Below the pieces are notes generated by a model. That model worked only from the letters and a program-made list of their open reading frames with translations. It ran no database searches and was not told the origin of the DNA. From an uncultured archaeon (GTDB lineage Archaea; Thermoproteota; Bathyarchaeia; Bathyarchaeales; Bathycorpusculaceae), in assembly GCA_963810275.1 (NCBI GenBank), contig CAWENF010000017.1, positions 1-64,000 on the forward strand: 64,000 nt of DNA, written 5' to 3'. The position numbers were made by a program, and so were the translations under genes. Numbering within the stretch: the stretch's first letter is position 1; each line of letters starts with the position of its first letter. Shown here one piece after another: positions 478 to 7,326 of this stretch.

Positions 478-1875
478 TTACTTGATGTTAGGCTGGAAAT
501 AATCATTAATTCTGCGTTGGAACATCGCCTTCTTGAGCAGTTCGCTTTGGAGTATCCAGCGTTGTATTGGGATTTCGAATTTGCCGCTTAAAAACTGTAG
601 TGACTGGACCAGCGTGTTGAATTTGTATGGTTTTTGACGCATGGCATTTCGAAGCGTCTCGCGTACTTGCCATACACCGATGGGCATGATGTAGCCGGGC
701 GAGCTTCGCGCAGGACGATTGCGGTGGCTTGGCGGCGTTCTTTTATAAGTTGCTCGCAGATGGCGAGTCGTGCGCTGTAGTAGCAGCCGCCAATTGACGC
801 GTATATTTTGCGTCCGTGGTTGGGTTCCCAATCCGAGTAGATGGCGACTCGGAGCCATTGGGGTTCCACACAGTGCCGGGGTACCAGGCCTCCATAGATT
901 CGTAGCTCCACTGCCCTGGAATCATCAAAATCTCAAATATATTATCTAAATAAATGGATTCATACACGCGGTACTCGTTGACTTCAGGAAAAGTCTTAAC
1001 TTTCAACATGAGATTTTTAGAGGTTGTCACATCAACTGCGGTTATCTCCATCTTGTCGGCACCAGCCGTCTTTTTCGTTCTATTCCAAAAGCACCCACAC
1101 TAAATGCTTTTTGTATTTTCGTAATCGTCACGCCTCGACTGTAAAGGTCCACTACGGCTCCTGTGGCTTTAAGGTCAGGGTCGTAGTAAGCTTTCTCTAT
1201 TTTCTGATCGTATCGTGCATTGCTAACACGGAGGTTGCCGATAGGGGCTGACGGCCCGAACGGCTGAACATCGTCGCTCAACGTTATGGATCCTCGGGGC
1301 TTCTTGGTTAGGTTGAGTTCGGTGTCTACAACTGCAGCTGCAAGGGCTAAGTCGCGGGTTTGGTCAAGGATTCTGCCAGCTTCATTCATTTTTGTTACGT
1401 TGACAAGGTGTTTACCTCGTATGAGTAGACTGCGAAAACCTACGATTTCATCCATGGATTTACCAAACCACTGCTCAGGCGAATCGTAAATGCTTGTGTC
1501 CTCATGAAGCGGCGGTACCAATGGCCCGATGTACACGTGAGGGTAGCCGATTCTTCCTATAAATATGCTGGGCGGAGAGTTACCGTCTATGTCCTCTTTA
1601 TCCATCAGTGGAACCGATTTGAGCAACGTGTTAACTTTAACCATGATTGGGCATCGTGTTTTGCCGCATAGAAATCGTGCGCCTTTACAAAGCACACAGA
1701 GGCTGTTTTGGGCGCGTGTGGTAACAACTTGCTCTTCAAGGGGGGTATTGTTGACTTTTCTTATTATGTCTTCGAGCCAGTTTTTCTGGTTTTGCCCCGT
1801 AGCGGCTGGATTTTGCGTTGTGGTCATATCTAAAAGTGTAGGATGTTGTTTTGTGTTCATATCTTTTCTGCACAT
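478..1875 (-). CDS. nreA: archaeal Nre DNA repair protein, split by ~3 frameshifts
   Basis: N-terminal CxxCKGxxxLCGKxxCP, SPPSIFIGRIGYP, RRLVPTRW/(S)ITAVD, GGCYYSARLA and MPIGVWQVRE are spread over ORFs 1042-1875, 743-1051, 588-911 and 478-858; C-terminal PIP box QRRINDYF. Confidence 0.9.
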
Positions 1876-2135: not shown

Positions 2136-3054
<919 letters not shown>

Positions 3055-3056
3055 AA

Positions 3057-5273
3057 CTATGTTGATTTGAAGCGGTCAAAAGTTGCGAGGTTGCTCATAG
3101 ACCCGCAGTTAGGGCACTTATGCATTGTGCCTACAAAGCTCTTTTTACAGTTGCCACAGTAGCTCAAAGCACGGTTGTATGTAAAAAACTCGCTTGCCTG
3201 ATTCTCAATTACACGTTTGGTTAAATCCATCAATGCATCAGTCTGGTATTCGTCACAGTCTAACTCAAACACGTCTAAGCTGCCCCCTGCAAGCAAGCCT
3301 TTGGTGATATGTGTTATTTCTACAGTGCCAGTCGGCGCCACCAGGGGATGTGCAGCTTTTATTGGGATACGTTTCAAGGTGGAATAGTATGGTTTGTCGC
3401 GGGTGCCAGCGAATTTGACTTTGACCACGCCGAAGCGTTCAATGTCAAGCTGTGCAAGCCGTTCGGCAGCTTCCCTGTCACCCAACATTACAGGGTATAG
3501 GCGTTTGCCGTATCTTCTGCCATTTTTATGAGTAAACGTCAACAAAGTTGATATGACCTCTGTAGCGAAGTTGTGGCTTTTCTCTGAGTTCAGGGGTTTA
3601 CCGATGAAAGTTTCAATGGCTTCACGGAACCCGGCCAAATTTACTACTCGGCTACAGTTCTCCAAGCGAAAATATGTGTCGCCGTCTGTCTTCTGCAACA
3701 AAAACGGCAGCAATGTTCTGCCAAACTGCCTAAGAGCGTTATTTTTAATGCTTAATGCGCGTGCGGCAAACTCGAAGCGTTCCTTAAGCAAATCAAAAAA
3801 TACAGTTTTGTCCCCACAGCTTTCTAGGGCGATTCTGGGCATATTGATAGCGACGCAACCCAAGCAGCCTGTTCGCAGTGTGTCTATTTCCCAATCGCCG
3901 GTCAAGTCGGCGCTGAATTTGACGCCAGAAGCTGCGAACGTTGAGTTATGGGTTTCTTTTGTGGTCAAATTGGCGAAGTAAACGTTCCCGCTTTGCAAGG
4001 CAAGTTGATGGGCTTTTCTAAGAAACTCCAAAGCCTTTGGATTTTGCAGCGAGTCTGATCGGATTTTTATGACAAGTTTGGGGTTAAGCATCGTTTTTAC
4101 TTCGCCTTCTTCAAGGCAAACATCCAAAATGAGAGATGCCAAAAGCTGGGCTTCCGCTAAGTAGTCACCGTACTTACCTACTACTTTACCCTCTGCGCCG
4201 ATGGCTTCTTTCTCCAGTAACGACTTCGAAGGATCGAAATCCAACCCTAACGTGGCATCAGCGTGCTGGTTAAGGTTTAAAATGAAAAGACGCAGGCTCT
4301 CTTTGAGCTTAACAACTTCGATGTCTCTAGCAAACGGCGAGAGGCTATAGTTAACGTAGCTGTAGGTTTGAGTGCAATCAGTTTCGCGGCTGCAATGGAG
4401 CAGCACGTTAAACGCAACAGAGAGGGCGGATTTAAAATTTATAGGAGGCGGCATAGCTGTTTGGCATGGGTCGGCAAGTCGAAAGCCGTGTTGGAAGAAG
4501 TACCGTAGATCATGGATTATTTCATTGGGCTTCATCAGCCATGTACCTAATCCGTCGATGCGTAAGTCGCCTGAGAGGTGAGCATCTGCGATATCGCGTG
4601 GGAAAACGTTTAGCAATGCATATTCGCCCAGAACGGTTTGCCCAGCCTTGTGGATAGCAGCTTCGCAGGTTAGTGTTGGGTTTTTGGATTCGATAAGTGC
4701 AGCTACTTCGCTGATTGGCAAGCCTACGCGGGTCAGTTTGTTTCTGTATTCCTCGTAACCTTTTTCGACTAAAATACAATTGACGACTTCACGGATAAGC
4801 GGCGCTGTGATATACTTGGTTTTAGATTTAATAAGACGTTTTTCGGTTTCTTTTGCCGCTTTCTGGGCGAGATCAGCCGGAACTTTTGCTTCTTTTATGA
4901 GTGAGTTGGCTATTTTGTTAGCATCAAACTCTTCCAATGTCAAATGAGAGGTGCGCACCAGCATGCCACGGGGCTTGACGGCTTTCTTTTCAACTCTGTC
5001 CGCCACGTCCAGAACCATTTTGCCAAGGTCAGTGAGGTAATACTTTTTTGCCTCCACATCCGCCTCCACCAACCCCGCCTTTAACATGAACTTAAGGTGA
5101 TAGGCAAATCTGCCTGCATCGCGGCTGGGATTCATTTTAAGCTCGTTCATGAGCTCAGTATAAGAGAGGGTGCTTTTATCGAAGAGCAAATTAAGAATTT
5201 GCAGACGCAGGGGTGATGAGACTGCTTTTAAGACTTTGACACCGCGGCTACGCATCGGCTGCTGGTTAACCAT
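3057..5273 (-). CDS. ArsR-type HTH + ATP-cone + class III ribonucleotide reductase (NrdD)-like protein, apparently catalytically degenerate
   Basis: N-terminal wHTH (LKAVSSPLRLQIL...FAYHLKFM), ATP cone (EEFDANKIANSL...APLIRE), DIADAHLSGD, DWEIDTLRTG..INMPRIA, C-terminal CxxC...CPNCG; no RxxGY motif. Confidence 0.85.
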   Translation of the reverse strand: MVNQQPMRSRGVKVLKAVSSPLRLQILNLLFDKSTLSYTELMNELKMNPSRDAGRFAYHLKFMLKAGLVEADVEAKKYYLTDLGKMVLDVADRVEKKAVKPRGMLVRTSHLTLEEFDANKIANSLIKEAKVPADLAQKAAKETEKRLIKSKTKYITAPLIREVVNCILVEKGYEEYRNKLTRVGLPISEVAALIESKNPTLTCEAAIHKAGQTVLGEYALLNVFPRDIADAHLSGDLRIDGLGTWLMKPNEIIHDLRYFFQHGFRLADPCQTAMPPPINFKSALSVAFNVLLHCSRETDCTQTYSYVNYSLSPFARDIEVVKLKESLRLFILNLNQHADATLGLDFDPSKSLLEKEAIGAEGKVVGKYGDYLAEAQLLASLILDVCLEEGEVKTMLNPKLVIKIRSDSLQNPKALEFLRKAHQLALQSGNVYFANLTTKETHNSTFAASGVKFSADLTGDWEIDTLRTGCLGCVAINMPRIALESCGDKTVFFDLLKERFEFAARALSIKNNALRQFGRTLLPFLLQKTDGDTYFRLENCSRVVNLAGFREAIETFIGKPLNSEKSHNFATEVISTLLTFTHKNGRRYGKRLYPVMLGDREAAERLAQLDIERFGVVKVKFAGTRDKPYYSTLKRIPIKAAHPLVAPTGTVEITHITKGLLAGGSLDVFELDCDEYQTDALMDLTKRVIENQASEFFTYNRALSYCGNCKKSFVGTMHKCPNCGSMSNLATFDRFKST

Positions 5274-5384
5274 GCCCTTCTCCCCTGAGCTCCCGAATTT
5301 GTTTGTAGAAGTACCTATTATTCTACTGGAGACTTTAAACCTAACGACAAAAAACAGGTTTATCCTGCTGTTTACAGTTAACCC

Positions 5385-6431
5385 TTAGCTGGGGCAGGGC
5401 TGCTGCTGGCTGATGCAGTGCAGCGTGCCAAACCCGTAGACTAAATCTTTGCAGCAAATACCAACTACTTTTCTGGTTAGAAACAACTTCTGCAAAATAG
5501 ACAGCGCCTTCTCATCATTTGGGTGGTCAAACATAGGCACCAGCACTTTGTTGTTGCCTATGTAGAAGTTGGTGTAGCTTGCTGGCAATCTGCACCCTTC
5601 TTCGTCAACAACTTTGGGCATAGGCAACTTGACGACGCTGAGAGGGTTCCCATCCTGGTCAGTGCTTTTTTGGAGCAAGTCATAGTTTTCTTTAAGCACC
5701 TCATAGTCAGCATCATCCATATCATCCTCAAAAGCGCAGACAACAGTTGTAGGGCTAACAAATCGAGCAAGGTCATCGATGTGACCGTCAGTATCATCAC
5801 CTAAGATACCTCGTTTTAGCCAGATAAAGTGGCGCGCCCCCAAAAACTCCGACAGGTACCATTCAATCTGCTCTTTTTTGAGGTCAGGATTACGGTTACT
5901 GTTAAGCAAGCACTGCTCAGTAGTAAGTAGGGTACCTTCGCCGTTGATATCTATGCTGCCACCCTCCAACACAATGCCCGGACGATAACAACGTAGCTTC
6001 ATTTTTTCGTTGATAAACGCGGGTACTTCTTTGTCTTTTAGGAGGGTTTCATATTTTTCGCCCCAGCTGTTGAAATCCCAGTGAATCATCGCCAATTCAT
6101 GCTTGTGATTGCGTACAAAGATGGGACCGTAATCGCGGAACCACACATCAGCGTAACTAAAAATGTAAAAATGTATTTTGGTAAGGTCTATGTTTGCTTC
6201 TTTGAACATTTTGGTGGCTTTCTCTTTGGTTTGCACGTCTTTCACGAAGAGATTGACATCTTCGCTTGTGTGAATTTCTTTTATTATTTGCACGTAGGTG
6301 GCTTCTACTTGATATACTCGGTCGGGGAAGGTAAAGGGGTCGTAAGGCCAAGCCAGCCAAATCGCAGTGTGCCTTTGCCACTCAGCGGGCATCTTAAAGC
6401 CCAACTCTCGGCAGCCATCAGCATTACTCAT
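5385..6431 (-). CDS. aguA: agmatine deiminase
   Basis: MPAEW, DVWFRDYGP, LEGGSI, DTDGHID, GTLHCISQQQP. Confidence 0.95.
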   Translation of the reverse strand: MSNADGCRELGFKMPAEWQRHTAIWLAWPYDPFTFPDRVYQVEATYVQIIKEIHTSEDVNLFVKDVQTKEKATKMFKEANIDLTKIHFYIFSYADVWFRDYGPIFVRNHKHELAMIHWDFNSWGEKYETLLKDKEVPAFINEKMKLRCYRPGIVLEGGSIDINGEGTLLTTEQCLLNSNRNPDLKKEQIEWYLSEFLGARHFIWLKRGILGDDTDGHIDDLARFVSPTTVVCAFEDDMDDADYEVLKENYDLLQKSTDQDGNPLSVVKLPMPKVVDEEGCRLPASYTNFYIGNNKVLVPMFDHPNDEKALSILQKLFLTRKVVGICCKDLVYGFGTLHCISQQQPCPS

Positions 6432-7326
6432 CTGTGGTTTTCTCCAGTTTTTCGGTTAGTTTTTGGTAGGTATCGGGGCGGCGGTTGCGCAGAAAACCCC
6501 AGCCGTCCTGAATCATCTTGTTCATCGCCAAGTCAACTTCGATAATAACAGTTTCCTCCCCTATGGTGTTGGCTTCCGCAAGGACCTTACCGAATGCGTC
6601 GCACACAAAGCTTCCGCCCCAGAATTGAAGTTTATCTTCCTCACCAACCCTGTTAACTGCTGCCACATGCACCCCGTTAGCGATAGCGTGGGAACGCTGC
6701 ACTGTTCGCCAAGCTTCATGCCAGTCCCCATCCGCTGACGTGTAACCTTTGACATTGCCGATAGCGGTGGGGTAAAACAGAATTTCTGCTCCCATAAGCG
6801 TGCATATGCGGGCGGCTTCGGGAAACCACTGGTCATAGCAGATAAGTACTCCAATTCTGGCTAAAGGCGTCTCAAATACTTTGAAGGACTCGTTACCTTG
6901 TTGGAAGTAGTTTTTTTCATAGAAGTAGGGGTCTTGTGGGATGTGGATTTTTCTGTATTTGCCCATGACTGCCCCGTCAGCTCCGATGACTGCGGCGGTG
7001 TTATAGAGTTTACCGTCTTCTGCTTTCTCGAAGATAGGTGCTATGATAACGACACCGTATTTTTTGGCGATAGGGCTGAAAAGTTCGATTGATGGACCTC
7101 GTATGGACTCCGCGAGAGCCGCGGCATCAACGTTTTCTTGTTGGGGGAAGTAGCGTGTGCGATACAGCTCTTGGAGGCAGATGATTTGGCCGCCAGCCTC
7201 AGCGGCTTCTTCTATTTTCTGGGCGGTTCTTTGCATGTTCGTCGCTAAATCTTCGGAGAGGGCGATCTGAATTAAAGCGATCTTAACAGTTTTTTGGGGT
7301 TTAGTGATGGCTATGGGTTTCTCCAT
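6424..7326 (-). CDS. aguB: carbon-nitrogen hydrolase, N-carbamoylputrescine amidase-like
   Basis: nitrilase triad in CLQEL, YRKIHIP and ICYDQWFPE; overlaps aguA. Confidence 0.85.
   Translation of the reverse strand: MEKPIAITKPQKTVKIALIQIALSEDLATNMQRTAQKIEEAAEAGGQIICLQELYRTRYFPQQENVDAAALAESIRGPSIELFSPIAKKYGVVIIAPIFEKAEDGKLYNTAAVIGADGAVMGKYRKIHIPQDPYFYEKNYFQQGNESFKVFETPLARIGVLICYDQWFPEAARICTLMGAEILFYPTAIGNVKGYTSADGDWHEAWRTVQRSHAIANGVHVAAVNRVGEEDKLQFWGGSFVCDAFGKVLAEANTIGEETVIIEVDLAMNKMIQDGWGFLRNRRPDTYQKLTEKLEKTTDE

Follow-up and report, generated by a model that had tools for sequence, protein, structure and literature searches.

A non-catalytic class III ribonucleotide reductase fused to an ArsR-type winged helix: a candidate nucleotide-responsive regulator in Bathyarchaeia and ammonia-oxidising archaea

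In transcription factors of the MocR/GabR type, a GntR winged helix-turn-helix (wHTH) is joined to a domain of aminotransferase fold, a dimeric enzyme fold with lost or reduced catalysis that acts as sensor and dimerisation scaffold. ArsR/SmtB metalloregulators carry Cys-based metal sites. We know of no example in which a ribonucleotide reductase (RNR) has been converted from an enzyme into a wHTH regulator. NrdR, a bacterial repressor of about 150 residues that consists of a Zn ribbon and an ATP-cone, is described as present in most bacteria and only some archaea (PMC9110341), and nucleotide-dependent changes in its oligomeric state or conformation are reported to control its binding to DNA (PMC9110341, 10.1101/2024.05.27.596032). 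RNR gene regulation in most archaea is largely unexplored, a gap that the family described here could address. We have analysed a stretch of 64,000 nucleotides (the window; contig CAWENF010000017.1) from an uncultured archaeon of the Bathyarchaeia, in which an intact open reading frame (ORF) of 738 codons on the minus strand, confirmed by the ORF listing and its translation, encodes a protein, P0001, that fuses a wHTH to an NrdD-like class III RNR. On balance, we favour the view that this apparently dead reductase serves as a dimeric, ATP/dATP-responsive DNA-binding regulator of genes for deoxynucleoside triphosphate (dNTP) and pyrimidine synthesis. The gene and its parts are as follows.

3057–5273, minus strand: whole gene, encoding a wHTH, an ATP-cone, an apparently dead NrdD barrel and a Zn ribbon in 738 residues (ORF, Pfam, AlphaFold2 model, fold matches)
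4980–5252, minus strand: ArsR-type wHTH, residues 8–98 (HTH_5, 31.9 bits; DUF7347, 30.4 bits)
4734–4961, minus strand: ATP-cone, residues 105–180, with the hairpin VRTS where the canonical form is KR(D/N)G (PF03477, 31.0 bits)
3189–4673, minus strand: NrdD-like alpha/beta barrel, residues 201–695, with a degenerate active site (alignments, fold search, homodimer model)
3057–3188, minus strand: Cys4 Zn ribbon and vestigial glycyl-radical loop, ending TFDRFKST and stop (alignments, conserved endings, independent contigs)

P0001 shares features with several described systems. Like the class III enzymes of T4, E. coli, T. maritima, P. copri and S. thermophilus, it has a ten-stranded barrel, an N-terminal cone, a helical dimer interface and a Cys4 ribbon; unlike them, it lacks the radical Gly, the thiyl Cys, the second Cys, HxHD and the NxN flap, falls below the NrdD equivalog cut-off, carries an additional N-terminal wHTH, and belongs to a family that occurs in genomes without a real NrdD. 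With NrdR it shares an ATP-cone joined to a DNA-binding module and a location beside RNR genes, and the regulatory logic proposed here for P0001 would be the same; outside the cone, however, there is no homology, P0001 having instead an ArsR-type wHTH and a 500-residue dead-enzyme body. The protein may work like NrdR without being a member of that family. As in MocR/GabR proteins, a wHTH is fused to a large dimeric enzyme fold that would act as ligand sensor, although the enzyme fold, the wHTH family and the ligand class all differ, and P0001 resembles ArsR/SmtB proteins in its winged-helix fold and its HTH_5 signature. The design, in which a dead enzyme serves as scaffold for a wHTH, has precedents, as has the logic of regulating RNR genes through an ATP-cone; what seems to be new is that the two are combined and that the scaffold is an RNR. 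We found no published account of an NrdD fused to a wHTH, or of an NrdD that is dead, including in PMC9669993, PMC11226230, PMC5906684, PMC9531940 and PMC4390871; supplements and subscription journals lay outside this search, and a mention in RNRdb or in Pfam notes is possible.

Profile searches bear out the architecture of the original prediction, a 738-residue protein with a wHTH, an ATP-cone, an NrdD barrel and a C-terminal Zn site; its coordinates also stand, and only the strand is corrected, to minus. In Pfam, HTH_5 of the ArsR family matches residues 20–70 (31.9 bits, cut-off 22), DUF7347 residues 14–89 (30.4 bits), the ATP-cone PF03477 residues 105–176 (31.0 bits, cut-off 25.8) and NRDD PF13597 residues 202–731 (188.9 bits, cut-off 26.2). 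Against the NrdD equivalog TIGR02487 of NCBIfam, P0001 reaches 211.5 bits, short of the cut-off of 326.35, while the real NrdD of another Bathyarchaeia genome (G183) scores 520.5; the metalloregulator profile NF033788 gives 32.7 bits against a cut-off of 55, and a search with the NrdR profile TIGR00244 gives no match to P0001. An AlphaFold2 model built from a 79-row alignment (mean per-residue confidence, pLDDT, 89.1; predicted template-modelling score 0.79) has low confidence, in keeping with disorder, only at residues 1–6 and in the wHTH-cone linker at 99–102. Its best 34 fold matches in the PDB are all class III RNRs, with class Ia RNRs next; the S. thermophilus enzyme ranks first (9d3x, Foldseek E 4e-25), and those of P. 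copri, T. maritima and T4 are also found. The best solved relatives of the wHTH are HlyU-type ArsR proteins (E 0.007–0.03). By its fold, its PF13597 match and its Cys4 ribbon, P0001 belongs to the NrdD homologous superfamily.

Modelling of residues 200–695 as a homodimer gave a score of 0.45, the best of three controls reaching 0.00; of the proteins solved as one-chain pairs 20 of 30 pass the mark used, and of those solved as single chains 1 of 23 does. The runs share at least 97% of their contacts, with a partner pLDDT of at least 80, and the modelled interface is formed by helices 201–215, 279–297 and 325–337. Because solved NrdD dimers exist, this pass may reflect likeness to them. On this model, the body of P0001 would pair through those N-terminal helices that also hold real NrdD dimers together.

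Catalytic positions were mapped by a MAFFT local-pair alignment of P0001 with the E. coli and phage T6 NrdDs, using T4 numbers that we take to be C79, C290, N311 and G580; T6 NrdD carries Cys79, Cys290, Asn311 and Gly580 at these numbers. The second active-site cysteine (C79) corresponds to E251 in KPNEII (window 4521–4523), the thiyl cysteine at the tip of the finger loop (C290) to V451 in AASGVKF (window 3921–3923), and N311 to C470 in GCLGC. An independent phmmer comparison with 9d3x pairs AASGVKFS with APMGCRSF and KPNEII with MTNCCL, and hence agrees with the alignment on ASGVK at the finger loop and KPNE at the upstream cysteine, both of which had been read from the sequence beforehand. 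The losses even exceed those predicted, as the HxHD motif is replaced by RIDG and the NxN flap segment is deleted. In P. copri NrdD, HxHD is described as the triphosphate-binding motif and NxN as an active-site flap, both of them binding substrate (PMC11226230). At the C-terminus, the tail TFDRFKST aligns with RRxCGY such that S737 (window 3063–3065) falls on the Gly and T738 on the Tyr, directly before the stop codon, and R..G[YF] does not occur in any minus-strand frame of window 2600–3200; the stop of the neighbouring pyrB lies just 2 nt from that of the gene. The loss of RxxGY therefore holds, although the loop is vestigial, cut exactly at G-Y, rather than wholly absent. What persists are the NxPR, RLAxLD and GG motifs, the barrel fold, and the Zn ligands C706, C709, C720 and C723. 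No NrdG is encoded beside the gene. Judged from these alignments, the loss of five catalytic or substrate-binding features strongly supports the identification of P0001 as a non-catalytic descendant of NrdD; together with purifying selection on the protein and the restriction of invariant cysteines to the Zn site (below), it gives strong backing to the pseudo-enzyme of the original prediction.

The same losses run through the family. A search of 1.84 billion cluster representatives returned 1592 matches at E<=1e-3 and 296 at E<=1e-30; ten source clusters, from Bathyarchaeota or Thaumarchaeota/Nitrososphaerota, are labelled 'ArsR family transcriptional regulator', 'anaerobic ribonucleoside-triphosphate reductase' or hypothetical protein. 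We aligned 101 of the 150 listed representatives (those of 560–830 residues) with P0001 and the E. coli and T6 NrdDs, giving 104 rows. Seven of these are real NrdDs, namely the two references and five representatives that have MGCR or MCCR together with RITGY and no wHTH (0/5); the other 97 include P0001. Three features compare as follows.

C79 column occupied by Cys: real NrdDs 7/7, other rows 3/97
HxH(D/N) intact: real NrdDs 7/7, other rows 6/97
N.N flap present: real NrdDs 7/7, other rows 3/97

For C290 and G580, column counts are unreliable, the real NrdDs being shifted there by 1–2 columns, and motif windows were used instead. A seven-residue window on the finger loop contains a Cys somewhere in 13 of 96 non-canonical representatives, with a GCR-type string only in P0132. 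Three members depart from a clean picture: P0132 keeps its GCR-like finger loop but has no RxxGY, and P0146 and P0177 have an RxxGY-like string after the Zn ribbon but no finger-loop Cys. Deeper family members retain an extended C-terminal domain with Ala or Ser in place of the Gly, and it is at this point that the tail is cut in the subfamily of the window. Across the 79-row alignment, the four Zn ligands are the only invariant cysteines. Of the 97 rows, 82 have residues in the wHTH columns, the remaining 15 being N-terminal fragments or HTH-less proteins with cone and barrel.

Two readings would deprive these losses of their meaning. One is that the gene is an nrdD truncated by assembly error, or a decaying pseudogene, and the assembly does contain such a fault, a one-base error in the adjacent pyrB, and has a split nrdD on another contig, C4. 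We reject this reading, to which we assign a negligible chance. Contigs from an independent DNA run (X2; 3004–3163 and 3135–3366) cover the 3' end of the gene and agree with the window throughout, with neither a difference nor a gap; at least 120 homologues at 67–99% identity have the same four Pfam domains, nearly all with 734–739 residues and three longer; the 40 commonest 12-residue endings, which cover 104 of 121 homologues, all have the form (F/V)(D/N)R(F/Y)xxx without Gly; and in 199 of 301 genomes the family is present, as a single copy. Because independent contigs reproduce the 3' end and orthologues share the architecture, fusion and losses alike, the truncated C-terminus is not an assembly artefact, and no RxxGY is hidden behind an assembly error. 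The other reading is of a cryptic enzyme that turns over nucleotides by different chemistry, for example with the Cys pair of GCLGC, as the original prediction had allowed. The retained barrel, motifs and Zn site would suit it, as would the cysteine of P0001 at the N311 position and the RxxGY-like strings of the distant P0146 and P0177, but the C470 column is not conserved (N 20, V 16, I 14 and C 8 among 97 rows), no cysteine outside the Zn ribbon is invariant, and P0146 and P0177 have no Cys in their finger loops. The substrate-binding HxHD and NxN elements (roles as given in PMC11226230) are gone, and the barrel has diverged far more rapidly than have the wHTH and cone. We consider a cryptic enzyme highly improbable.

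Conservation within the family is concentrated in the wHTH and cone, not in the barrel. Identities to P0001 are given for 12 close orthologues, which are 67–77% identical overall, and conserved columns for 74 family rows.

wHTH: 93% identity; columns conserved at 90% or more, 11/91
ATP-cone: 88% identity; columns conserved at 90% or more, 24/76
Barrel: 63% identity; columns conserved at 90% or more, 16/495

Within the wHTH, G54, F56, Y58 and H59 are at least 97% conserved in the 74 rows, and the putative recognition helix lies around DAGRFAYHLKF. Inspection of the translation shows that residues 1–100 contain no Cys, so that the Cys-based metal sites of the ArsR family cannot be present; by its sequence, the domain has the ArsR-family fold and the protein is probably no metal sensor. 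The sensor would presumably be the cone. For EcRNR and StNrdD, cone contacts are described from a hairpin Lys/Arg, Ile22, His59/Gln79 and a helix-4 Lys (PMC12662201). When the cone of P0001 is aligned with that of E. coli NrdD, their counterparts are the invariant residues R107, I121 and R161, plus R177/R182; following that account, R107 would correspond to the hairpin basic residue, I121 to the Ile that senses the 2'-OH and R161 to the helix-3 ribose contact. The second hairpin basic residue is replaced by Thr in P0001 (VRTS). Real NrdDs encoded beside family members share the VRTS cone, which indicates that it was inherited from a working enzyme. According to PMC12662201, ATP and dATP put NrdD cones in markedly different positions, and in P. 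copri NrdD dATP-bound cones mediate oligomerisation (PMC11226230). The genome also holds two further ORFs with an ATP-cone, C5:27601-27768 (minus strand) and C7:6548-6760 (minus strand); one is a frame of about 136 residues with an N-terminal cone and one a predicted membrane protein of about 370 residues with a C-terminal cone.

In a FastTree phylogeny of 72 rows, the 51 HTH-bearing forms make up a single clade (Shimodaira–Hasegawa-like support 99) beside archaeal real NrdDs, and these include NrdDs encoded adjacent to family members; FastTree is a quick method, and the tree carries long-branch and composition warnings. In this tree, two HTH-less, apparently dead groups fall within the real NrdDs, which points to independent losses of catalysis. 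NrdD-like proteins that lack both the wHTH and the finger-loop Cys are L050 (G004:C5) 2177–4084 (minus strand), P0241, P0210, P0215, P0242, P0236, P0261 and P0264, and in genome G004 one such gene lies directly downstream of an HTH-bearing form.

A query made of the wHTH and cone (residues 1–200) finds nearly always a single match, in 199 of 301 genomes of the phylum (168 of 263 of high quality) and 83 of 122 genera, and no match in seven families (f13, f21, f22, f26, f27, f28, f29). The ammonia-oxidising Nitrosopumilaceae-type genomes, among which Nitrosotenuis, Nitrosopumilus and Nitrosopelagicus hold relatives of the query, have the gene in 40 of 41 cases and in all 36 of high quality. All four Nitrosopumilaceae-type genomes tested have no other PF13597 match and one class II RNR. 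This B12-dependent enzyme, NrdJ (TIGR02504, 727.8 bits), is encoded about 200–440 nt downstream on the same strand in 29 of 30 Nitrosopumilaceae-type loci, the thirtieth ending at a contig end. Loci L051–L053 and L056–L085 of this type also have a small conserved ORF directly upstream of the gene, for a Zn ribbon with two CxxC pairs.

Among Bathyarchaeia, the gene is followed in three genomes (G183, G204 and G252) by a real nrdD, a convergent pyrB and pyrI, in that order, and in a fourth (G109) by a real nrdD, after which the contig ends; the adjacent NrdDs of all four have RITGY. These four are a biased sample, picked for an adjacent second match. Of 20 loci sampled for family diversity alone, 4 have an RNR gene immediately downstream (three of class III, one of class II), 12 have pyrB or pyrI in the vicinity, and in 8, several with short flanks, neither RNR nor pyr genes are found. 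Close relatives of the window have pyrB directly downstream in all 27 loci, convergent in 26, and 13 of the 27 have upstream the pair for agmatine deiminase and N-carbamoylputrescine amidase (polyamine synthesis) that occupies window 5385–7326 on the minus strand. Bathyarchaeia-like synteny recurs at L014 and L025 in metagenome-assembled genomes labelled Methanocella sp. and Limnocylindrales bacterium, which are probably mis-binned contigs.

The genome of the window has two PF13597 loci, the gene described here and a real nrdD on contig C4. The latter lies in an nrdR-nrdD-nrdG operon (L001, 699–3963; NrdR 155 bits to TIGR00244, NrdG 170.2 bits to TIGR02495), so that a canonical nrdD and nrdG exist elsewhere in the genome. 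The absence of an nrdG next to the fusion gene, noted from the outset, holds. In the C4 NrdD the cone is of the canonical KRD type and the motifs MCCRL and RVVGY are present; an apparent frameshift divides its gene into overlapping ORFs of 568 and 165 residues. With its cone type differing from that of the VRTS neighbours, the operon may represent an NrdR-linked replacement of the ancestral nrdD. We found no class I or class II RNR in this genome, which is 92.6% complete.

Upstream of the gene, alignment of the window with 26 loci reveals one further feature, which sits 57–63 nt before the ATG and could be an operator.

5311–5348, minus strand: conserved promoter block, B recognition element (BRE)/TATA GTTTAAA then ..CAGTgGAATwATAGGTAg (27 aligned sequences)

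In 29–30 Nitrosopumilaceae-type loci, conserved blocks likewise occur upstream of the gene and in the intergenic region before nrdJ, those upstream of nrdJ reading GGTGTnAAA..TTGAnC and then TTATA. An RNA-library run (X13) yielded a 151-nt contig equal to window 5132–5282, which spans the start codon. This contig is a weak hint of transcription, as DNA carry-over is possible and the contigs carry neither ends nor strand.

These observations can be joined in one scheme. An archaeal nrdD would have been duplicated in tandem, the upstream copy gaining a wHTH and losing catalysis while keeping the cone and the dimeric body, and the gene would then have stayed linked to whichever RNR each lineage uses. 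An NrdD-like dimer, formed through the N-terminal helices, would put two ArsR-type wHTHs on one particle, each tethered to its ATP-cone by a short, flexible linker of six residues. ATP/dATP-driven movements of the cones would join or part the two wHTHs, setting the spacing of the heads and switching operator binding. The regulator would act on its own promoter and on the RNR gene that was its ancestral downstream neighbour (nrdD in Bathyarchaeia, nrdJ in ammonia oxidisers), and maybe on pyrBI. The ligand, DNA binding, operator, targets and direction of regulation are all conjectural parts of this scheme. At a more speculative level, to which we give rather less than even credence, the protein could be a fossil-enzyme master regulator of dNTP supply throughout ammonia-oxidising Thaumarchaeota and Bathyarchaeia, swinging its wHTH pair on and off RNR operators as the cone, possibly together with a relic specificity site at the dimer interface, reads the ATP/dATP (or dNTP) pool. 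This would explain why a gene for an 'anaerobic reductase' is kept in obligate aerobes, and would amount to an independent archaeal invention of the NrdR principle.

The nucleotide-sensing regulator put forward in the original prediction gains indirect support from the conservation of wHTH and cone and from synteny with two RNR classes and with pyrB/pyrI, but no operator was found, and several further observations weigh against it. Searches of the genome with 13- to 14-mers at 1–2 mismatches, and for spaced direct repeats, gave scattered hits and no convincing second copy of the promoter block, and the pyrB promoter is similarly conserved, so that conservation of the block is not specific and offers no evidence of an operator. 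No motif was found to be shared among the gene's own, pyrB and nrdR promoters, and in Nitrosopumilaceae-type loci the footprints before nrdJ have no clear motif in common with the promoter of the gene itself. The lineage of the window no longer has any RNR adjoining the gene, and in the unbiased sample an RNR adjoins it in only the 4 of 20 loci given above; the adjacency to pyrB is convergent, which rules out a shared transcript. A true NrdR is encoded beside the real nrdD here, which makes a second RNR regulator look redundant. One of the two canonical hairpin basic residues of the cone is lost, so that the ligand could differ from ATP/dATP, and the X13 contig is the sole hint of expression.

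Two other roles compete with that of a DNA-binding regulator of dNTP and pyrimidine synthesis genes. P0001 could be a non-catalytic partner of RNR, whether an allosteric or regulatory subunit or one half of a heterodimer with a real NrdD, in which the wHTH would be secondary. The NrdD dimer-interface helices retained in the homodimer model, the position directly upstream of a real nrdD with the same unusual VRTS cone in several Bathyarchaeia, and the placement beside those NrdDs in the tree all fit such a partner. As a general role, which the original prediction had offered, it is disfavoured by the ammonia oxidisers: the four Nitrosopumilaceae-type genomes tested all encode the protein but lack a real NrdD, their one RNR being class II, with another type of subunit. 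A pure protein-binding role also leaves unexplained why the wHTH is the most conserved part among close orthologues, and a real nrdD is adjacent neither here nor in the 26 close-family loci that reach far enough upstream; we regard a partner role as unlikely. Only slightly less unlikely, in our estimate, is a regulator of pyrBI or of nucleotide metabolism in general, for which the adjacency to RNR would be a relic of the tandem duplication. The constant presence of pyrB downstream in the 27 close-family loci speaks for it, as does the greater frequency of pyrB/pyrI (12/20) than of RNR (4/20) in the family-diverse loci. The tail-to-tail arrangement, however, shares no promoter, the gene's own and pyrB promoters have no common motif, and in ammonia oxidisers there is no pyrB among ORFs of at least 150 residues in three 8-kb loci, while the class II RNR is the downstream gene in all 29 loci that can be assessed. 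Since nrdJ is not the paralogue from which the gene was duplicated, this linkage is not a duplication relic.

The scale of the family gives the question some weight, as roughly two in three of the phylum's sampled genomes carry it, as do nearly all Nitrosopumilaceae, globally abundant nitrifiers. Of its two names in databases, 'anaerobic ribonucleoside-triphosphate reductase' is misleading: in metabolic reconstructions it credits aerobic ammonia oxidisers, and Bathyarchaeia, with an anaerobic route to dNTPs. If it is a DNA-binding regulator, the family would provide a testable handle on replication and dNTP-pool control in these archaea, and a clear case of an enzyme turned transcription factor that has retained its allosteric sensor.

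The convergent neighbour, for which TIGR00670 matches both pieces, is as follows.

2136–3054, plus strand: pyrB, encoding aspartate carbamoyltransferase, in two pieces

The pieces lie in two frames, 2136–2672 and 2647–3054, because the window has a surplus base near 2621. At this site each of the three DNA runs that span it has one base fewer, and the two pieces are in frame in orthologous loci; the split is therefore an assembly indel and pyrB is not a pseudogene. Elsewhere in the window, the ORF at 1042–1875 (minus strand) has a product like the DNA repair protein NreA (NF041387, 97.5 bits, far short of the cut-off); an ORF at 743–1051 overlaps it (region 478–1875, minus strand) and may continue it in another frame, possibly through an indel.

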